Made by a program: the position numbers and the translations under genes. 64,000 bases of DNA from Candidatus Poribacteria bacterium (GTDB taxonomy: Bacteria > Poribacteria > WGA-4E > PCPOR2b), in assembly GCA_965208675.1 (NCBI GenBank), contig OZ242351.1:1792001-1856000 (forward strand), in the 5' to 3' direction. The number at the start of each line of letters is the position of its first letter. The stretch's first letter is position 1. Below the pieces are notes generated by a model. The model saw only the letters and a list, made by a program, of their open reading frames with translations. It ran no database searches and was not told the origin of the DNA. This document shows positions 16,925-26,510 of the stretch, in pieces.

Positions 16925-18260
16925 TGGATAAACACGGAGACAAAGTCCAGAGTTTAATAGTTTACAAAAGTTTACAAAAATTAACAAAGTTTACACACTT
17001 TTTCTATCCTACACGATTCTTTCGTTCATTGCCGTCATGCGTAAACGTCTGAATCGCGGATTGCCGCGGATTATGCGGATGACACAGATTGAAAGAACTC
17101 CATCACGGTTGGGTCCATTTGCAAAATCGATTGCCGTGTTACTCATGAGTTCTTGTAGGTTGGGTTAAGCGGAATTTAAGAAAAATGGCATCTACGCTGT
17201 GTGCGCTTATAGGTTTGATTGCGTTAGAATTTTGTAATGGGTAGCGAACCCAACCTACAACGCGGTTGAATTTTGTGCGGATTTGGATAAACGCGGAGAC
17301 AAAAATCAGATTTCAGAAGTTGACAAAAGTTTACAAAATTTAACAAAGTTTACATATTTTTCCCTCTATCGCGCTAGAAGGCAAATGTCTGAATCGCGGA
17401 TTGCCGCGGATTGTGCGGATGACACAGATTGAAAGAACTCCATCACGGTTGGGTCCATTTGCAAAATCGATTGCCGCGTTACTCATGAGTTCTTGTAGGT
17501 TGGGTTAAGCGGAATTTAAAAAAAATGGCATCCACGCTGTGTGCGCTTATAGGTTTGATTGCGTTAGAATTTTGTAATGGGTAGCGAACCCAACGTTTTT
17601 CGGTATTTCGAGTGTGTTTCATTGAACGGCACCGGTTGGTACGTAGGAAAAGCGTTGGGTTACGTTGCATCTCAACTAGTTTGGGCGGAAATCCTTTCCC
17701 GAAACCGATGAGTTTTTAGTAGCATATTTCTAGAACCCGCTCAACCCAACCTACAAAAACTGTTACAGATTAGCACCGAGACAATACTCAGATACCAAAG
17801 GTTGACAAAAGTTTACAAAATTTAACAAAGTTTACACACTTATGTCTATCCCACGCAATTCTTGCTTCCACCGCCGTCATGTGTAAACGTCTGAATCGCG
17901 GATTGCCGCGGATTTTACAGAGAACACGGATTGCAAGAACACCATTAGGGTTAGGGTCGTTTTGAAAAATCGTTTACCGCGTTCGCCATACGTTCTTGTA
18001 GGTTGGGTTAAGCGGAGGCTACGAAAAATAGCATGTATGCCGTGTGCGTGTCTAGGTTTGATTGCGCGAAAAATTGTGTTACACGTAGCGAACCCAACCT
18101 TCAACGCTGTTGAATTTTCAGTGGATCCAGATAAACGCGGGGACATAACTCAGAAATCCAAATTTGACAAAAGTTTACAGAATTTGACAGATTTGAATTT
18201 AATCCTACACAATTCTTCTGTCCAACGCCATTGTCTGAATCGCGGATTGCCGCGGATTAA
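16925..18260. repeat. Tandem array of ~340 bp composite repeat units (three units plus a partial fourth)
   Basis: GTCTGAATCGCGGATTGCCGCGGATT at 17047, 17387, 17889 and 18233, each preceded by a TTNACAAAA direct-repeat block; the first three are followed by GTAGGTTGGGTTAAGCGG...GCGAACCCAAC. Confidence 0.92.
17495..17754. repeat. GTAG-type REP/REPIN-like nested inverted repeat
   Basis: GTAGGTTGGGTT...AACCCAACG...CGTTGGGTT...AACCCAACCTAC; simpler copy at 17155-17258. Confidence 0.8.
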
Positions 18261-18382
18261 AAACACTGGCGTTATCCGATTCATCTGTTGAATCCGTATG
18301 GCTATGTACCTGTATTTCGGTGATTTATCGCCGGAGCCGTGGTTCGCCTATTCAAATGGCAACAGAACCTCGCAACTGAAGG

Positions 18383-19585
18383 TTATGGTAATATAGTCTG
18401 ATGGAATTGTATCTTTCCATCTTTAACGGTATTGATGACTAGACTTTTGATCGCGCGCCGATTTTCATCAAAATGCGCTAGTATTGCCGCACCGTTGTAG
18501 TTCCGAGTCGCCTCAATCTGTTTGCGGATTGCTGCGGGGGTTATGTCAGCCGATCGACGCATGGCTTCAATGACAATAGAGGTAGAGTCATAGCCTAGTG
18601 CAGCGGGACCGTCGGGGGCGATACCAAATCGTGCAGTATAGGCGGCAACAAATTGACGCGCCGCTGCGCTTAACTCTGCGGTCGGGGCATCGGCGGAAAA
18701 ATGATTCGCAAAGTAACTCCCTTCAATGGCGGGACCGGCGATTTCAAATAAGTCCGGCCTGTCCCAACCATCGCCGCCCAGAAAGGTCGCCGCAATATCA
18801 ATTGCAGTGTCCTTCGCCTGTTTAACTGCCAGCGGGAATTCCGCACCCAAACCACCCAGAAACACCACATCAACAGCAGGTTCCACCGCGGCAATTGGAA
18901 TTAACTGCGCCGTAAAATCTGTCGTACCTGCCTCGTAAGGTTCATGAACTGCAATTGTGCCACCGAGCGCGGTAAACTGTTCAATGAAAGCGTCCGATAA
19001 GCCCTCCGAGTAGCTGTTACCTGTTTCCGTGAGGACCGCGGCAGTCGTTGCCGCCAACCCCTGCATAGCAAAATTCGCTATCATACTCGCCTGATACGGA
19101 TCTGTATAAGCGCCCATAAAAGAAAAATTCCCATTTCTAGTTACCTGTGGGTTTGTCGGATAGGTTGTCACCATCGGTATTCCGCGTTGTTGAACCACCG
19201 CTCCGACTTCCATAGCCACGGTGCTGTAGTCCGGTCCCACGATTGCCAATACACCTGCATCAATGAGTTCCTTTGCGAATTCAACACTGAGTGAGGGGTC
19301 TCTTTGATCTTCTCTAATCAGAAGTTCTATCGGTTGTCCGTTAATCCATCCCGCCTCGTTTGCAAGGAGGACAGCTACCTCAGCACCGCTCCGAGTCGTT
19401 CCGGGGTCGGGTGGACTATAAAGGAAACCGATTTTGATTGGACCCGCACTGTCAGGTTCATCAGGCACGACGAGTTCTTGAATAAAGTCGCACGCTAAAA
19501 AGCAAAGGGGCAATAAGAAAAATAACGCCAAAATACCGTAATCCGAGAAACATCTGGGTATGGTTCTATGCTGGTTGAATATCAT
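18383..19585 (-). CDS. Branched-chain amino acid (Liv-type) ABC substrate-binding lipoprotein
   Basis: Lipobox-like CFLAC, INGQPIEL..D, IVGP, FLGGDGWD, ALGYD. Confidence 0.85.
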   Translation of the reverse strand: MIFNQHRTIPRCFSDYGILALFFLLPLCFLACDFIQELVVPDEPDSAGPIKIGFLYSPPDPGTTRSGAEVAVLLANEAGWINGQPIELLIREDQRDPSLSVEFAKELIDAGVLAIVGPDYSTVAMEVGAVVQQRGIPMVTTYPTNPQVTRNGNFSFMGAYTDPYQASMIANFAMQGLAATTAAVLTETGNSYSEGLSDAFIEQFTALGGTIAVHEPYEAGTTDFTAQLIPIAAVEPAVDVVFLGGLGAEFPLAVKQAKDTAIDIAATFLGGDGWDRPDLFEIAGPAIEGSYFANHFSADAPTAELSAAARQFVAAYTARFGIAPDGPAALGYDSTSIVIEAMRRSADITPAAIRKQIEATRNYNGAAILAHFDENRRAIKSLVINTVKDGKIQFHQTILP

Positions 19586-19640
19586 AAAGATTCTCCTTTT
19601 GGTTCGAGGTAATATAATGGTGATGCCTTATCCCTATGCT

Positions 19641-20130
19641 TGTCTGAATTAGGATTCACTGGATTAAAGGATTGTCAGGATTTTGGGGACGCATCCTCTC
19701 TTTTCTCACTGTCTGAATCGCAGATTGGCGCGGATTAAAGGATTACACGGATTGAAAAAACTATCACGATTGGCTTCGTTTCGTAAAATCGGCTGCCGCG
19801 TTCTCCAGGTGGTAATTTCTCTTATTCATCGTCAACGAGGCACCTTAGCTTTTGTAGGCTGGGTAGAGCCAAAGGCGAAACCCAACGTTTCTAAAGCGTT
19901 ACGAACTCATCGACGGATCCGAACGGCAAACACACAATATTAGACGCATCACAACAGCATAGACAAGAAAAGCGTTGGGTTTCGCTTCATGGCAACAAAA
20001 ATGAAACAAACTCACCTTCCGATCGTCTTGCTCCCTATGTCGATTGTTTCTCAACCCCGCTCTACCCAACGTACAAAACTACTTGGTGATTTGGCTTCGT
20101 TTCGTAGAACTCGGTTACCACGTTCTCCAT
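19641..20130. repeat. Diverged further copy of the composite repeat, including a GTAG REPIN (19854-20074)
   Basis: TGTCTGAAT..GGATT modules at 19641 and 19710, TTGGCTTCGTTTCGTA twice, GTAGGCTGGGTAGAG...CTCTACCCAACGTAC. Confidence 0.8.
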
Positions 20131-20144
20131 TAGTAAGGTGTACG

Positions 20145-20258
20145 TCAAAGATTCTGTTTTACCTCGCCCCAACGCTTTATCCTTCCCGCTTTCAGTTTTT
20201 TCGTCGAGAGTTGTTTGATTAACTCAATTGCTTGCTGTTGTAGGTCTGCTTTCCGCAC
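20145..20258 (-). pseudogene. 37-aa antitoxin-like remnant
   Basis: AAGGAG RBS + GTG; MRKADLQQQAIELIKQLSTKKLKAGRIKRWGEVKQNL resembles the N- and C-termini of small type II antitoxins with the middle missing; no toxin follows. Confidence 0.4.
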
Positions 20259-20288
20259 GGTATTCTCCTTTCGTTCTGTTTGCTGTGC

Positions 20289-20382
20289 ATTGTCTGAATC
20301 ACGGTGTGGCGCGGATAAAAGGATTACAGGGATTAAAGGTGCTATATTCACCAACTGCGATTGGCTTCGCGATTCTGACAAT
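20289..20382. repeat. Short MITE-like element with terminal inverted repeats
   Basis: ATTGTCTGAATC ... GATTCTGACAAT (11/12 complementary) enclosing GGATT sub-repeats. Confidence 0.65.
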
Positions 20383-20390
20383 TTCAGTCC

Positions 20391-20807
20391 TCAGTTAAAC
20401 GGATCTAATGTCACCTCAAATGGTTCATGCGGCTGTCGCTGAATCCATGATTGCAAATGTTCGGCAATTATTTCCACATCGGTTATCGTCCCATCCGCAA
20501 TCTTGAAGCCAAGTTCAATAATCAAATCATCAATGTTGAGACTAGGGGCAGAACCGTTCAAAACTAAAAACCAGAGCGCGCAGGTCAGACCAATTCGCTT
20601 ATTCCCGTCTAAAAACATATGTCTAGTAATAATGTGATGGGCATATACAGCAGCCTTTCGGGGCAACGTCGGAAACAGTTCTGAATCACCTAATTTTTCA
20701 CCGACTATTTCAACCAAATAGTGTAACTGATTTTCATTCAACAACTGATAACTATCCACCTGCCCCTTAGCAACCCTCAGAATGTCCTCAATTGTCAAAT
20801 ACTTCAC
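20391..20807 (-). CDS. doc: Fic/Doc family toxin (death-on-curing type)
   Basis: HMFLDGNKRIG Doc motif, LFPTLPRKAAVY; GTG start (MKYLTIEDIL) overlaps the upstream TGA as GTGA. Confidence 0.88.
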   Translation of the reverse strand: MKYLTIEDILRVAKGQVDSYQLLNENQLHYLVEIVGEKLGDSELFPTLPRKAAVYAHHIITRHMFLDGNKRIGLTCALWFLVLNGSAPSLNIDDLIIELGFKIADGTITDVEIIAEHLQSWIQRQPHEPFEVTLDPFN

Positions 20808-22672
20808 GGTTTTGCTAGAGTTTTCCATGCTCGATCGTAGTTTCTTATTATCTCGTCCAAGTCGACTTCAGCATCGCTCACCGATTCGTGAGTGGCTTCT
20901 CCATTTCTTTCTTTTCGCATGGCAATTATCTGGGGTGTTAACATTGCGGCGATGTCGGCGGGTAATTGAATTCCTGTTATCTGCTCAAAACTTTCAACGC
21001 TTCCGTAATCGTTACGAAATGCAGCGATAATGTTTATCCCCATGTCTCTGGCATTCATTAGGTCTGATGTGGCTTTTTCCCACTCTCTTAGGTGTAGCCA
21101 TGCCTCACCACGATTGTAATAGGCCTCGGCATAATCAAGTTTGAGTGCTATCGCTTTGGTACAATCGTTGATGACGTGCTTATAATCGCCTTTTTTAAGG
21201 TATGCATTGCTGCGATTGTAATAGGCACTAGCATAATCGGGTTTGAGTTGTATCGCTTTGGCATACTCCGCTATCGCACGGTCAATATCACCTTTTGTCT
21301 CGTAAACAATACCGAGATTGGTATAGACTTCCACCAAATTTGGAGTCAATTGTATTGCCATATTCAAATCTTCAATCGCACGGTTAAAATTGCCCTTTAC
21401 GCAATAAACTATTCCACGCCCGCAATAGGCTTCAGCATGATTAGCGTTGAATTGTATAGCAGTGTCATAGTTTTCGATGGCGCGGTCAAGATTGCCCTTA
21501 TACATATAAGCATTACCGCGACTACTATAGGCTTTGGCAGAATCGGGTTTCAGTTCTATGGCTTTGTCGTGGTCTTGAATGGCACGGTTATAATTGCCCT
21601 TATACGCATAAGCATTACCACGATTGCTATAGGCTTCGACCGAATCGGGATTGAGTTCTATCGCTTTGTTAAAGTTATCAATCGCCTTGTCAAAATCACC
21701 TTGTTCCCCGTAAACTATACCACGACCATTGTAAGCATCAGCAAAATCCGGTTTCCAGTCTATCGCTTCGTTAAAATGATAGATGGCAGAGTCAAAATCT
21801 TCTAACATGGAATGAGCTCTACCACAGTTAATATGTGCCATGACAAGATTCGGCATTAGCTCTAGTGTAGCTCTATAATGATTAACAGCTTTTTTATAGG
21901 CATCATGCCTTCCTTGCAAGGTTTCTGCTGTGGATCCTTGCTCTTCATACTCACGTGCAATATAAAACTCGACAAAGGCACTCCGATATCGACTCTGCAT
22001 TGTGATAAAACCATGAAGATCGTTGTAGATTGTTTCTGTAGTTATAGGAGAATCTTGCCTCATCAGATACTTTAGAATAGGCACCTTGAGGGTTTTTGGA
22101 ATACAGATAACCTGGTCAGCATCTGGCTTAATAAAGCCATTAGGTGGTTGAACGAATACGCTCTTTTGAGCTTCAACGCGATGCTTAGGTTCGGTCGGCT
22201 CCCAAATTGTACCTGCTATTGCTCCGCGATCTTGTACGATAATTCTACCATCTTTGTTGTAGTGACCGTCACAAGCAAAGAAGAGGGCTACGCGATAGTC
22301 TGTTGTAAAGTCTATTAGGTTGGTTTCTCCACCCCAGTGTTGGATTTCGGCTAGAATTTCAAACTGTCTCTCTGTATACTCGAAGGGGTTGTAGTCACCA
22401 CTCCATAGGAAATAAGACCTCTGGCTTTGGCTGGGCCCGAGTCTATTGATATCGTACTCTTCAGCCTGAGTCAGTATCTGCTTTTGGATTCTCGTCATAC
22501 CGACTTTCGCAACTGGTTGGCATTCACGCCAGAGACTAGAGGAGACTTCCAGATAACATTCAGGTTCACCTCGGAAGATGTAGGTGCCATCTGCCGATTT
22601 CTCCTTTATATCGTCGATGACGTCCTGAACTGTGCGTGGCGTATCATTTGAGGTGTTGGATTGATTTGACAT
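20804..22672 (-). CDS. FRG domain + TPR repeat protein with antitoxin-like C-terminal tail
   Basis: YIFRGE, QHWGGETNLIDFT...ALFFAC, RVEAQKSVF (FRG); about 9 34-aa TPRs (AYxNRG); tail DLDEIIRNYDRAWKTLAKP; GGAGGAG RBS. Confidence 0.85.
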   Translation of the reverse strand: MSNQSNTSNDTPRTVQDVIDDIKEKSADGTYIFRGEPECYLEVSSSLWRECQPVAKVGMTRIQKQILTQAEEYDINRLGPSQSQRSYFLWSGDYNPFEYTERQFEILAEIQHWGGETNLIDFTTDYRVALFFACDGHYNKDGRIIVQDRGAIAGTIWEPTEPKHRVEAQKSVFVQPPNGFIKPDADQVICIPKTLKVPILKYLMRQDSPITTETIYNDLHGFITMQSRYRSAFVEFYIAREYEEQGSTAETLQGRHDAYKKAVNHYRATLELMPNLVMAHINCGRAHSMLEDFDSAIYHFNEAIDWKPDFADAYNGRGIVYGEQGDFDKAIDNFNKAIELNPDSVEAYSNRGNAYAYKGNYNRAIQDHDKAIELKPDSAKAYSSRGNAYMYKGNLDRAIENYDTAIQFNANHAEAYCGRGIVYCVKGNFNRAIEDLNMAIQLTPNLVEVYTNLGIVYETKGDIDRAIAEYAKAIQLKPDYASAYYNRSNAYLKKGDYKHVINDCTKAIALKLDYAEAYYNRGEAWLHLREWEKATSDLMNARDMGINIIAAFRNDYGSVESFEQITGIQLPADIAAMLTPQIIAMRKERNGEATHESVSDAEVDLDEIIRNYDRAWKTLAKP

Positions 22673-22709
22673 TTTTATTCATTCTCCTCCATTATTGTAA
22701 TTTTTTTAC

Positions 22710-22845
22710 TATCAGAATCGCAGATTATCGCGGATTCAGGGATTATACGGATTCAAAAATCCGCGCTATCTGCGTAATCCTCCCCGATTTTATCCCCGAT
22801 ACATCGGGACAGGCGGGATGTGCCACTTAATCCTTGATTCAGACA
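22710..22845. repeat. MITE-like palindromic element that supplies the stop codon of the methyltransferase gene
   Basis: TATCAGAATC...GATTCAGACA termini, internal GGATT/AATCC inverted arms; the TGA of the 22839 gene lies inside the terminus. Confidence 0.7.
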
Positions 22846-25800
22846 TTTTCCGTTCCTTCCACAATTTTAATTTCTTCAGGGGTAAGCCTGTATAATAAGT
22901 ATACTATCTGATCAATCTCATATTCAAGTTCGCTTACATCTGCCTCTGGGTTGGCGTGTTTGGTATCAAGGATTTGGTTGACACGTTTGGAAATCCCTTC
23001 ATCCTCTGGCTGGTCAGGGATTGCAATCGGCGAAATGTACATTGGTTTGAATTCCAAAAAGTCGCCCTGCCGTTCCGCGGCACTTTGCGATACCAAATAC
23101 TGAGTGATTCGAGAATTCATGAGGCCAAGTATATAAGCACTATTAGAAACCATCATTGTTGCTGGTGCGCTCAGATAGACATTGGGACACGAGAAAGCAA
23201 ACTTGGGGTTCTTTGCCAAATTTCCCCAAACTATCGTCGGTTCCTGAAATTCCTTCCAATACGCACACGCGCGCAACTCCCAGAAGTATTTCCCCTGATC
23301 ATACCGCTCAATTAGGCGGTCTCGAAAGGTTTGTAGGTGGGCGTAGATTGCGGGGTAGGTATCGGCGAAAATCGCCTCCGCTTCTACGGCAGATTCTACC
23401 GACCACGGATGTGACCGATTTTCCGACGATTCAATTTTTATGAGGTACTGCTCGGCGAAATTCACGCTCCAGCGTTTCACATCCCGTCCGCGCAAAAGCG
23501 GTTTCATCACTTCAGCCGAGGCGGTGTGTTCTGCAATGAGTTGATTCCGCGTCGCTTGGTCCACGACAAATGCTTCGTTCAAACCTGTCAGGACGCCTCG
23601 ATAAAAACGTCCTTTGACATATGCCCCCAACGGTTTACCCGCGTTGCGGAGTTTCTTCAGCAAATTCAACGTTGCTGGGGAAGTGAGTCGCCAACCATCA
23701 GCAGTAAGAGCATTTTGGGGCATGGTGAACCCCTTCGTTTGAAAAATCGTCCCGAATTCGTCAATGGAGGGCCCCGGCTCCCAATTCAAGGCACGGAGAT
23801 GGTTGTCTTGGGCATGGGTCTTGGACGCTGTGATAATACTCGGATACGCAATGGATGTAAAAACAGGAGCATCACCAAAGTCAATGAGTTGAGACAGGGT
23901 GTACTGACGGGCGAGGAAATCTCGAAGTTTCTTTCCGTAGGCGGACCGGAAGTATTTGTTTGAGGAGATGTAGGTTAAAACACCATTGTCCCGGAGCAAT
24001 TGGAAACCGCGCTCATAAAAGTAGACGTAGAGATCTGCTGTGCCGGTATAACAGTTATATTGATCTTTCAGCGTTGGCTTAAGTTCTTTAATTTTTTCTT
24101 GGCGGACATACGGCGGATTACCAATCACCACATCAAACCCATCTGTGACCCCAAACATCCATTCCGAATCAAACCAATCTGCACTTGCGTTCTGGTCGTA
24201 GGGGTCCCAATGGGCAATTTTCTCCGCATCATCGGGGGGCATCCCAATATCCTTTAATTCCTTCGCCAACCCCCGCCGCAACTTCTTGTCTTCTCGTTTA
24301 CACGCCAGTTTCTGCGGGCGCGTCGTTGCGTGGAAATGCCGCTCGCGGTTATCGCCCAATTCTCGCTCTAAATCCCTCGCTTTGGGACTGGTCAGGGTTC
24401 GCTCCTCTTCAAGACCGATGAGTGTGTTTACCGCGATAAAGCGTGTCTCCAGATTCGGCAGCGGCTTAATCCCAAAGTTGTCTGCATCTCTATCCGGCTC
24501 TTGCTCAATGGCAAGGGAGATAAAGAAGCGGAGTTTAGCGATTTGGCAGGCGATGGATTGAATGTCCACACCGAAGATACTGTTTTGGATTAGGTATAGT
24601 TTTCGCCCAAAGTTGCCCGAATAATTTTCAAAGATTCTGCTAATTTCTTTGAGCTCTTCGTCGCGTGTCTCTCTATCCTTTGTATCAAACGCATCCGCTG
24701 CCCGTTGGATGGCGCGTTCTTTCTGTAGCTGCTCCCACCGGGTATTATCCGGATCAAGCCGCCGCAGTGCGAGGGTCAGTTTGTGCAGAGCACCCATTGG
24801 AAACGCACCCGACCCCACCGCCGGATCCAGTATTTTCAACTCTGAAATGGTCCGCACAATCCGGTCCGTCTCATCGTCATCAAACCATTCGCTTGCATTG
24901 TCGCATACCTTTGCATAATCGAACAGATAACGTAATTCCTCCCACAACTCCGTATCGCCATCCGTGGGCTGCACCTCTCCTGCTAGTGCCGCCACCAATG
25001 CCTCCTCCACCATGTAGTCCACGATGGGGCGTGGGGTGTAATAAGAACCTGTCTGCCTCCGTGCCGTTGTGCCGGTTTCGGGGTTATAGGCGGCGAGCAG
25101 ATTTTCAAACACCTTGCCGAGCAGCTCTGGATCTAACGCAACCTCCTGCTCTATCGGTGTGTTTTCCTCAACGGTGAACTTGTAGTGTTCTAGGAGAGGA
25201 ATCAAACCACGGTCCCTATCAAAGAAGAGACGGTTGGGAACCGTCAACTTATTGTAATGCACATCAGAAAAGCAATCAATACGGTAACCACCATCCCCTG
25301 TTGCTTCCTCGCTGTCAAGACAGTCAAACAACCCGCCGTTGATGAACGGCGTTTGGGTGAATAATTCCAGCAGTTTATCGGGATGACTGATTTGGCTTTT
25401 GTAACGATAGCGTGAAAAGTTGCGGTGCGTAGTGTTTTTCTCTGTGCTAAACTGACGCTTCTCTATCTCAGTGTTCAGCGTAGCGAAAAACAGGTTCTGT
25501 AGCACCGTACGGTAGTAGGAATCGCCGGTATCCCGGCTGTAATCCTTCAACAGATAGGCAACTTCCGTTTCATCGAAAAGTTCGTCCGCAATCAACCCCT
25601 TCTCTTTAATGAACCATACGAAAAGCAAGCGCGTGATTAAGCGGATGATATGCTGTTCGGGTTGCAATACCCGCTTCTCTTTAAGGGGAAATCTTGACTC
25701 CTCGACCGCACAAACAAACCAGTTGAACAACTTCTGGTAAAACTGCTTGTTGAGCAATTCGGTATCAAGCGTGTTTTTCCACGCCTCATGCAGCGCCGGG

Positions 25801-26417
25801 AAATCCGTGAAACCATGCTGGCGGTGCAGTTCACCGAGCGAAAGGTCGAACAAGATGTCGATGTGGGCGCGGTGTGGGTTGGCGAAGACGATGTCTTTGA
25901 TGAGCGTCACTTTTTCGAGGACATCTTTGGATTCGTCGCGCTTGTGCAACCGACGGTCGATTACGGCGAACGTGAGCGCATCGCCATGTTGGAACATGAC
26001 CATAGCGGGTATCATGAGCAGATTGTTGATTTCGCGGACGATGTCGGATAGTTGGGTGCGGGTGTAGCCGCGATGTTGTAGCTTTAGAGCGAAGAAGAGG
26101 TAGGATTCATAGCGGTTCTGATCGACGCCACTGCCCTCGAAGCGAAAGGAAGTCTGAGCGCTCTGTATGATTTCGTCGTCTGTCAGTTGAAACAGGAAGT
26201 CGATGGACGCCCACTCACTCAACAGCCCGCGTTCCCGGTTCATCGTATTTTGCCGGTCGAAATGCTCAACAAATCCATCGGCGGTGTTTGGTTCGAGGGA
26301 TAGTGTCCTTTGGCTGCGGTAGCCGAGGGTGTTGAGGAGATGGAGGGCGTTTTCGGCAATATTCTCATCGGTGAAGCGTTGTAGGGCGCTCTTGATATCG
26401 TCTTTGGATAAGTTCAT
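22839..26417 (-). CDS. Type IIG/Eco57I-like N6-adenine restriction-modification enzyme with TaqI-C-like TRD
   Basis: GSYYTP, ILDPAVGSGAF, GVDIQ, FDVVIGNPPYV, ADLYVYFYE, PLLRGRDVKRW; start MNLSK chosen because the ORF-track extension runs through a REP. Confidence 0.88.
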   Translation of the reverse strand: MNLSKDDIKSALQRFTDENIAENALHLLNTLGYRSQRTLSLEPNTADGFVEHFDRQNTMNRERGLLSEWASIDFLFQLTDDEIIQSAQTSFRFEGSGVDQNRYESYLFFALKLQHRGYTRTQLSDIVREINNLLMIPAMVMFQHGDALTFAVIDRRLHKRDESKDVLEKVTLIKDIVFANPHRAHIDILFDLSLGELHRQHGFTDFPALHEAWKNTLDTELLNKQFYQKLFNWFVCAVEESRFPLKEKRVLQPEQHIIRLITRLLFVWFIKEKGLIADELFDETEVAYLLKDYSRDTGDSYYRTVLQNLFFATLNTEIEKRQFSTEKNTTHRNFSRYRYKSQISHPDKLLELFTQTPFINGGLFDCLDSEEATGDGGYRIDCFSDVHYNKLTVPNRLFFDRDRGLIPLLEHYKFTVEENTPIEQEVALDPELLGKVFENLLAAYNPETGTTARRQTGSYYTPRPIVDYMVEEALVAALAGEVQPTDGDTELWEELRYLFDYAKVCDNASEWFDDDETDRIVRTISELKILDPAVGSGAFPMGALHKLTLALRRLDPDNTRWEQLQKERAIQRAADAFDTKDRETRDEELKEISRIFENYSGNFGRKLYLIQNSIFGVDIQSIACQIAKLRFFISLAIEQEPDRDADNFGIKPLPNLETRFIAVNTLIGLEEERTLTSPKARDLERELGDNRERHFHATTRPQKLACKREDKKLRRGLAKELKDIGMPPDDAEKIAHWDPYDQNASADWFDSEWMFGVTDGFDVVIGNPPYVRQEKIKELKPTLKDQYNCYTGTADLYVYFYERGFQLLRDNGVLTYISSNKYFRSAYGKKLRDFLARQYTLSQLIDFGDAPVFTSIAYPSIITASKTHAQDNHLRALNWEPGPSIDEFGTIFQTKGFTMPQNALTADGWRLTSPATLNLLKKLRNAGKPLGAYVKGRFYRGVLTGLNEAFVVDQATRNQLIAEHTASAEVMKPLLRGRDVKRWSVNFAEQYLIKIESSENRSHPWSVESAVEAEAIFADTYPAIYAHLQTFRDRLIERYDQGKYFWELRACAYWKEFQEPTIVWGNLAKNPKFAFSCPNVYLSAPATMMVSNSAYILGLMNSRITQYLVSQSAAERQGDFLEFKPMYISPIAIPDQPEDEGISKRVNQILDTKHANPEADVSELEYEIDQIVYLLYRLTPEEIKIVEGTENV

Positions 26418-26437
26418 CCTTCTATTCTCGGAAGTGC

Positions 26438-26510
26438 TGTGGGGGCAGGTACAAGACCTGCCCCCACATTTGAACAATTCGTGTAGGGGCAACCCTTATG
26501 GTTGCCTTGT
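26438..26510. repeat. Pair of GTAG/GTGG REP-like palindromes
   Basis: GTGGGGGCAGGT-ACAAG-ACCTGCCCCCAC and GTAGGGGCAACC-CTTAT-GGTTGCC. Confidence 0.7.

Follow-up and report, generated by a model that had tools for sequence, protein, structure and literature searches.

Which partner holds a Doc toxin in check when no antitoxin gene lies beside it? The question is raised by a stretch of 64,000 nucleotides (nt) from a sponge-symbiont Candidatus Poribacteria bacterium (assembly GCA_965208675.1, contig OZ242351.1, positions 1,792,001 to 1,856,000; the window hereafter), in which a doc gene directly follows an open reading frame (ORF) of 622 amino acids (aa) that combines an FRG domain, an array of TPR repeats, a short C-terminal module (C-module), and an antitoxin-like tail. 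As a rule, a type II antitoxin is a small protein whose head binds DNA. Comparison of the locus with its relatives suggests that it is probably a type II Doc toxin-antitoxin pair in which the helix at the end of the FRG-TPR protein is the presumed antitoxin. The C-terminus in question is given as ...MRKERNGEATHESVSDAEVDLDEIIRNYDRAWKTLAKP in the ORF list and is also written ...LTPQIIAMRKERNGEATHESVSDAEVDLDEIIRNYDRAWKTLAKP, with YDRAWKTLAKP as its last residues.

The doc product matches Pfam Fic (PF02661, 36.2 bits against a cut-off of 24), NCBIfam TIGR01550 DOC_P1 (41.5 bits against 38.65), and the PDB entry 9vzc, “Death-on-curing family protein” (E value 4.6e-6). Doc-type toxins are defined by the motif HxFx(D/N)(A/G)NKR, which is fitted by HMFLDGNKR of the window, and H70, F72, D74, G75, N76, K77, and R78 are invariant in 18/18 sequences. 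The FRG-TPR ORF and doc are adjacent and overlapping on the same strand. The junction letters ccGTGAag confirm, as sequence, the GTGA overlap through which the initial annotation had the FRG-TPR ORF run into doc. Its statement that a separate antitoxin gene is missing is supported by the comparison with related loci, and no ORF was found between the two genes. An ATG at position 20828, 25 nt inside the FRG-TPR ORF in the Ala-Trp codons of the tail, is an equally possible start of doc. In a survey of 30 related Doc loci, 22 have this upstream ATG open and 7 have a stop codon in the way; at the GTG position, 24 loci carry ATG, GTG, or TTG and 6 carry TTC or CTC. Both starts are therefore used within the family, so that either is possible in the window and the overlap could span 25 nt or 4 nt. 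Of 17 loci compared, 11 show a 25-nt overlap of the two genes, 4 one of 34 nt, and 1 one of 4 nt.

Among related loci, it is the tail that accompanies Doc, as had been supposed from the window alone. Scanning of species genomes with the tail alignment yielded 49 loci, nearly all from organisms named Candidatus Poribacteria. The tail motif, scored as Y-[DEA]-R-A-W-K-[TA]-L, is present in 22 of the 49, and doc follows it immediately in 18 of the 22 (counting the doc of locus L001, although it is partial and at a contig end). The 27 motif-less loci are all without Doc, and most of them end a few residues past LTP. These proportions place the pairing of tail and Doc beyond chance. A Doc profile matches 101 of the 176 genomes of the phylum (77 of the 133 of good quality), and the upstream partners were examined for the 30 best-scoring Doc loci, the window's own included. 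A Y-x-R/K-A-W-K tail ORF lies directly upstream of doc in all 30 of these best loci, and the partner is TPR-fused in 27 (9 with a long tail joined via the C-module, as in the window, and 18 with a short tail placed directly after the last TPR helix) and stand-alone in 3. The search for further loci of this kind that the initial annotation had called for thus finds a fused tail with Doc recurring across Poribacteria, and the fused arrangement is conserved and predominates in this Doc clade within the phylum. The window genome itself (4.89 Mb) holds one such Doc, one full tail, and five tail-less matches to the C-module.

The fusion also recurs when the protein is searched rather than the locus. 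With residues 540-622 as the query, 24 proteins of 53 candidates matched. The whole tail is found in 13 of the 24 (counting that of the window) at 40-100% identity, and the heads of these 13 are TIR in 8 and FRG in 5 according to precomputed Pfam lists; the remaining 11 end directly after ...LPADIAAMLTPQ(Q). Across many Poribacteria, proteins of the TIR-TPR, FRG-TPR, and plain TPR types terminate in this tail, and fused relatives with 55-88% tail identity occur in the loci of at least nine other species. The last residues of the C-module are the endpoint of many TPR paralogues, which end precisely at LTPQ(Q); the fused tail, for its part, starts with the MRK of the stand-alone gene, in agreement with the fusion point at LTPQ and M585 proposed earlier.

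A stop at LTPQ(Q) in so many paralogues is what favors a recent accidental fusion, or an assembly error in the window genome, as the origin of the long ORF. Such an accident is exceedingly improbable. The junction is spanned by contigs from four public runs, each of a different study, with no indel within 20800-21100, which covers the region near 20920-20935 singled out for a read check; one of them, the run of highest share, could be the source sample itself and so not independent, and the other three represent relatives. Contig X1 shows 0 differences over 20836-22013, and contig X5 shows 67 differences and 0 gaps over 20300-21131. On the strength of these gap-free contigs and of the fused relatives in other species, an assembly artefact or recent accident was rejected. 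The accidental fusion that the initial annotation had weighed is further contradicted by a reading frame kept across species, in all four studies, and in relatives without the internal Met. Judged by these comparisons, the fusion is old and under selection.

The string CAG ATA ATT GCC ATG is present in the window, together with the out-of-frame TAA after LTPQ and the internal ATG (Met585) that had been pointed out as a possible start. Translation from Met585, whose following RK matches the start of stand-alone antitoxins, would yield a 38-aa antitoxin and make the fusion only apparent. This is very improbable, given that Met585 is missing from the fused relatives L003, L005, L006, and L007, in which the tail frame is still open, that the short-tail forms have no start of this kind, and that the frame is open throughout a linker of variable length. 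A stand-alone 38-aa product is not supported as a general rule.

The tail has two parts. The linker (residues 582-604) is predicted by AlphaFold2 (AF2) to have no secondary structure, with a predicted local distance difference test score (pLDDT) below 50; among fused relatives it varies in length and sequence and its reading frame is always open. Residues 582-614 are loosely constrained, with ratios of nonsynonymous to synonymous substitution rates (dN/dS) of 0.3-1.1. One helix is predicted in the tail, the amphipathic 15-residue segment 605-619 (LDEIIRNYDRAWKTL; pLDDT 53-67), and Y612, R614, A615, W616, K617, and L619, all within it, are invariant in 18/18 sequences. The last eight codons overlap doc, and the pairwise changes seen there are synonymous when read in the tail frame (0-5 synonymous and 0-1 nonsynonymous differences). 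As modeled, the tail is a disordered linker followed by one conserved amphipathic helix.

Several points weigh against the tail as antitoxin of Doc. Its last 25 nt double as code for the Doc N-terminus, an overlap that could explain some of the conservation; conservation from overlap alone is argued against because L031 retains the tail despite a 76-nt gap before doc and because the changes in the last eight codons are synonymous. The tail has no family: Pfam searches with the last 38, 76, and 110 residues at E values up to 10 returned only the TPR edge, PDB sequences compared with the tail profile gave no real match (a chance one at E 0.39), and hhalign of the tail against P1 Phd found no profile similarity (probability 0.2%). 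The motif occurs without Doc in 4 of the 22 loci (L004, L011, L015, and L040); of these exceptions, L004 has a frame that continues into another domain, and L015 keeps a doc remnant. The loci of the two genome scans overlap and come from the same species collection, with kin that are not independent, and the partner classes are regular expressions complemented by reading by eye, with the row for L043 mislabelled in the Doc tree.

The origin of the tail is indicated by the stand-alone partners of Doc (P0033, P0062, and L012-L015), which are 69 aa long and have the form MRKADLQQQAVELIKQLSTEKLKAG...EATHES...LDEIVRKYDRAWKTLAKP. The “MRKADLQQQ” antitoxin family of sponge symbionts to which they belong numbers 243 proteins of 37-121 aa in a large protein collection, none with a Pfam family or a name, and consists of one shared 45-aa head with three alternative tails, for Doc, ParE, and PIN. 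The second tail type ends ...AEADIKAGRLKRW.DV..DV and is followed by a ParE toxin in L035 (PF05016, 32.7 bits); the third, longer type is followed by a PIN toxin in L041 (PF01850, 43.5 bits). The window tail has the Doc-type pattern ...EATHES...LDEI.R.YDRAWKTL (alignments A1 and A3) and retains the MRK and EATHES of the antitoxin gene, with about 32 intervening residues gone; a profile of the 45-aa head has no match in the fused long-tail ORFs. On these shared patterns, the tail is derived from a small modular antitoxin family with exchangeable toxin-specific tails. In L012 the order is unfused, with a TPR gene ending LTPQQ-TAA, about 300 nt, the antitoxin, and Doc. The fusion took place at LTPQ through loss of the stop, with the head lost later, and the junction guessed earlier is thus right as history. 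In the ESM Atlas, the best score for the stand-alone antitoxin is 0.84, and DUF2281 at rank 16 (0.83) is a lead only.

In a separate group (L004:2873-4636, P0025, P0052, and P0180-P0188), a Doc-type tail without a stop runs on into a conserved domain some 135 aa long (...NGEICLEWRE.QKIFTLSFGGDGHIVFAGIFG...). This domain has no Pfam family, and L004 has no Doc downstream; it may be a different partner or a replacement for Doc.

Most of the antitoxin head disappeared when, at ...LTPQ, the antitoxin gene became joined to the 3′ terminus of the TPR gene that precedes it. Under the mechanism that we propose, the tail helix would lie in the Doc groove and block the kinase site, by analogy with the C-terminal helix of Phd in P1 and Salmonella, and doc translation would be coupled to the end of the FRG-TPR ORF. 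Doc would be freed once the full-length FRG-TPR protein is unmade, truncated, or degraded, and free Doc, a Fic-fold kinase, would by the same analogy be expected to phosphorylate EF-Tu and stop translation. Control would operate at the protein level instead of through antitoxin autorepression and would have to act on the protein, since the DNA-binding or dimerising head is gone. The cell would thereby be bound to the continued making of an intact FRG-TPR protein, encoded in a variable island beside a restriction gene.

TPR proteins carry more than one kind of antitoxin in Poribacteria. ParE-type antitoxins are fused to TPR C-ends in P0026, P0032, and L029, and a UPF0175 antitoxin is fused to the C-module of the TIR-TPR protein P0054 and of the TPR protein L043:3674-4318 (PF03683, 49.5 and 56.9 bits), which with the long and short Doc forms makes at least four kinds. 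Head-type antitoxin genes lie 100-600 nt past tail-less TPR genes in five loci (L012, L017, L032, L033, and L041). These observations, together with the frequent small TPR-only partners, favor a reading as a plain addiction module acting as a frame guard, in which the TPR part would be nothing but the folded N-domain of the antitoxin and the long FRG and TIR versions would have arisen by recombination among neighboring TPR paralogues. As the antitoxin closes the ORF, nonsense or frameshift mutation upstream of it or loss of the island would free Doc, and the module would stabilise the gene or island with no sensing at all. The window tail is 90% identical to TIR-TPR tails despite the different heads, which fits exchange of a 3′ cassette, and the Doc tree mixes long-tail and stand-alone forms in one clade. 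This reading is a possible but doubtful alternative: it is pure inference and does not account for the choice of a TPR protein as partner, and the adjacency is perhaps partly due to chance since toxin-antitoxin genes are very common in sponge symbionts.

The body that bears the tail is built from an FRG domain, a TPR superhelix, and the C-module. Pfam PF08867 (FRG) scores 43.3 bits on the ORF against a cut-off of 25, and the FRG columns R34, G35, Q111, H112, G114, D121, and S171 are invariant across 11 sequences. TPR families match in number, with TPR_1 reaching 209.8 bits. In the full-length AF2 model (10 sequences, mean pLDDT 71.5), the TPR superhelix is confident, with pLDDT above 90 over residues 230-580, and the C-module forms three short helices (pLDDT 86-90) that are strongly constrained (pairwise dN/dS 0.10-0.35). 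A Foldseek search with the full model returned TPR proteins only, with consensus TPR and OGT TPR superhelices at the top.

Such an architecture also invites a reading as sensor-gated abortive infection, in which the TPR array would bind a phage or other foreign protein, free or expose Doc, and perhaps activate the head, FRG or TIR, directed at nicotinamide adenine dinucleotide (NAD); a single chain would then combine the sensor, a first effector, and the restraint on a second toxin. FRG has been assigned to the ART superfamily and proposed as a NADase-type immune effector (PMC9503650, in part). The FRG part is matched by 13 models of the PADLOC candidate system PDC-S15, with the best at E 3.4e-13 over residues 13-146, and these matches are partial (for example, ORF residues 13-146 to model positions 10-122 of 286). 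The FRG and TIR heads are interchangeable on one TPR-tail body, tandem FRG-TPR and TIR-TPR paralogues occur, and a type IIG restriction gene is the neighbor here and, in synteny, in six other loci. The G+C content is low, at 42-43% (43.4% for the FRG-TPR ORF and 41.6% for doc), against 49.3% for the window and 50-60% for the neighbors. Even so, the sensor-gated reading is unlikely. The 18 short-tail TPR partners among the 30 of the Doc clade have no effector head, many with an open frame of about 100-165 aa, and stand-alone antitoxins occupy the same syntenic site in L013-L015. The Pfam TPR-S family stays below its cut-off (20.3 against 27.6 bits), and the FRG fold model is poor, with low-confidence pLDDT values of 54.8 for the domain modeled alone and below 50 within the full-length model. 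Moreover, TPR proteins of Poribacteria are usually viewed as eukaryote-like host-interaction proteins (PMC3909097, in part). A two-weapon version, in which the FRG/TIR-TPR-tail proteins are single-chain sensors whose TPR ligand both activates the NAD-directed head and releases Doc, is quite improbable; if it were true, the fusions of Doc-, ParE-, and PIN/UPF0175-type antitoxins to TPR proteins would represent a general wiring of toxin-antitoxin pairs to sensors in Poribacteria.

The coordinates of the locus are collected in Table 1.

Table 1. Features of the FRG-TPR-tail and doc locus, in window positions
Feature	Position	Strand	Remarks
FRG-TPR ORF, 622 aa	20804..22672	minus	FRG, TPR array, C-module, and antitoxin-like tail; stop codon counted
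FRG domain, residues 30-139	22256..22585	minus	PF08867 match; FRG motif within YIFRGEPE
TPR array, about residues 230-545, about nine repeats	21038..21985	minus	Pfam TPR families, AF2, Foldseek
C-module NIIAAFRNDYGSVESFEQITGIQLPADIAAMLTPQ, residues 547-581	20930..21034	minus	LPAD.AAMLTP invariant in alignment A1
Variable linker, residues 582-604, starting IIAMRKERNGEATHES	20861..20929	minus	keeps MRK start and EATHES joint of stand-alone antitoxin
Tail core LDEIIRNYDRAWKTLAKP, residues 605-622	20807..20860	minus	presumed Doc-neutralising helix; AF2 helix and invariant residues
doc toxin gene	20391..20828	minus	145 aa from ATG 20828, 138 aa from GTG 20806; Pfam Fic and TIGR01550
Doc catalytic motif HMFLDGNKR, residues 70-78	20595..20621	minus	intact; aligned to HIFNDANKR of P1 Doc
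Degenerate 37-aa antitoxin-like ORF VRKADLQQQAIELIKQLSTKKLKAGRIKRWGEVKQNL	20145..20258	minus	downstream of doc; compared with P0123 and P0140
Intergenic stretch with two repeat copies (TCTGAATCGCGGATT-like)	22712..22843		repeat family D5; repeat also downstream of island
Type IIG restriction-modification gene, upstream	22839..26492	minus	Pfam Eco57I 142.7 bits and TaqI_C; PADLOC REase_MTase_IIG E 1.4e-106

The restriction-modification gene noted earlier as adjoining the pair is indeed a type IIG gene upstream of it. An Eco57I-type gene likewise lies upstream of the TPR-Doc block in L001, L002, L003, L004, L007, and L015, and a gene for a periplasmic binding protein lies downstream in the window, L002, and L006. 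Because these neighbors recur, the locus is one syntenic, variable island. Depending on the species, the island contains FRG-TPR-tail, TIR-TPR-tail, TPR-tail, or a stand-alone antitoxin, and tandems of FRG-TPR and TIR-TPR are frequent. The short-tail group is located at a second site that is flanked by LolA-like and cupin genes.

Downstream of doc, the degenerate 37-aa ORF carries the family head and a ParE-type tail end, as though the stretch separating two KAG strings had been deleted; in the sequence that follows (window positions 19899-20172), a search for a toxin remnant found no family. The TCTGAATCGCGGATT-like repeat occurs 7 times in the window against 0.25 expected, with all copies in 17048-22843, and is part of longer families of 89-212 nt at 16927-18278. 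The same repeat element, read ...IRDSDN..., stands ahead of the stand-alone antitoxin genes in L012-L015, L017, L033, and L041. A scan for promoters and terminators found sites no commoner than in shuffled sequence.

Other genes accompany the island elsewhere. A eukaryotic-type carbonic anhydrase gene (PF00194) lies inside the island of L002, L013, and L015 and is absent from the window. PDDEXK_3 (PD-(D/E)XK nuclease) genes occur in the islands of four loci (L011:1020-1808, L015:3092-3877, L013:4617-5060, and L032:4234-4635), some of them fused to two or three TPR repeats and located beside TPR and toxin-antitoxin genes. L005:3-2945 is a single open frame with TIR, TPR repeats, and a TaqI_C specificity domain, which may be a fusion or read-through of a TIR-TPR gene and the remains of a restriction gene.

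With the terminal helix as the presumed antitoxin, a toxin-binding tail would here have moved onto TPR proteins, some of which carry TIR or FRG heads of the bacterial-immunity type. The locus would then be a natural, sequence-defined case of a toxin-antitoxin pair coupled to a large scaffold or sensor protein, and part of the TPR “eukaryote-like” gene load of sponge symbionts would be tied to internal bacterial toxin-antitoxin biology. The comparison also defines an unnamed modular antitoxin family with a single head and tails for Doc, ParE, and PIN toxins. The Doc toxin and the principle of a neutralising C-terminal helix are already known; what appears to be new is the TPR carrier, the family of the antitoxin, and the prevalence of the fused form throughout the phylum, as neither an antitoxin tail on a TPR protein nor the modular family was found reported in a literature search that covered main texts and few subscription journals.

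The closest known counterpart is Phd-Doc of P1 and Salmonella (PDB 3K33, cited in PMC9207808). The part of Phd that binds Doc is helical and C-terminal, and a 22-residue peptide (52-73) is sufficient for binding and inhibition; its hot spots for Doc are F56, I59, H63, L67, and L70, and Doc of both P1 and Salmonella phosphorylates EF-Tu and arrests translation (PMC9207808, in part). Phd-Doc and the window share the motif HxFx(D/N)(A/G)NKR and an antitoxin gene directly upstream of, and overlapping, doc. Phd neutralises Doc with a C-terminal helix that is disordered on its own, and the window tail is alike in predicted shape only. By eye, L605, I608, Y612, W616, and L619 are spaced 3-4-4-3 like the Phd hot spots, and both the tail and P1 Phd extend three residues past the last Leu. 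Judged from the sequences, this likeness is one of pattern and not of homology, because the hhalign comparison and the Pfam and PDB sequence searches were empty. In contrast to Phd, the window partner has no YefM/Phd fold domain and no detectable sequence relation to Phd, and its tail is attached to an FRG-TPR protein of 580 aa (a small TPR protein or a novel 45-aa head takes that place in relatives); P1 Doc and the window Doc are alignable over the motif alone (23 residues).

A second comparison is offered by the partners of the nearest plasmid Docs, which are AbrB/MazE/SpoVT-type or unnamed and are likewise encoded upstream of doc (E. faecium CP142861, Pseudonocardia NZ_CP011869, B. cereus NZ_CP113430, and L. 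plantarum NZ_CP094382). The C-ends of these four partners read ...YTVALEGL..., ...YGPAFRRLADL, ...NYEALERLSRT, and ...QEALDFLKDK; two fit Y-x-x-A-[LFW]-x-x-L exactly and two nearly, a pattern (aromatic-A-L/F/W-L) similar to that of the window tail, while the plasmid Docs are at most 35% identical to the window Doc. The resemblance of the Y....LA ending to AbrB-type Doc partners, noted in the initial annotation, thus gains some support for the C-end pattern but not for the domain, as no AbrB-type domain is among the Pfam matches of the window proteins. The candidate system PDC-S15, composed of single FRG proteins, shares the FRG domain with the window; its matches cover the first 140-220 residues, and its models, of 254-487 positions, are without the TPR-tail-Doc context.

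Two further groups of systems resemble the proposed arrangement in part. Some Fic proteins are controlled by an inhibitory helix that belongs to the same chain or to another, and TPR-Fic proteins such as FICD/FIC-1 carry TPR on the enzyme chain, with the inhibitory motif (S/T)xxxE(G/N). As proposed for the window, a helix obstructs the Fic-fold site and TPR is present in the system; unlike in FICD/FIC-1, the window TPR is on the inhibitor chain and the tail shows no (S/T)xxxE(G/N). Antitoxins can double as phage sensors, as in the fused CapRel SJ46, and antitoxin domains can be promiscuous, as in Panacea. Both share with the window, as read here, a presumed neutralising element borne on a larger, potentially signal-receiving domain, with antitoxin parts swapped modularly, whereas in the window the toxin is a separate gene and the attached body consists of TPR repeats headed by FRG or, in relatives, TIR.

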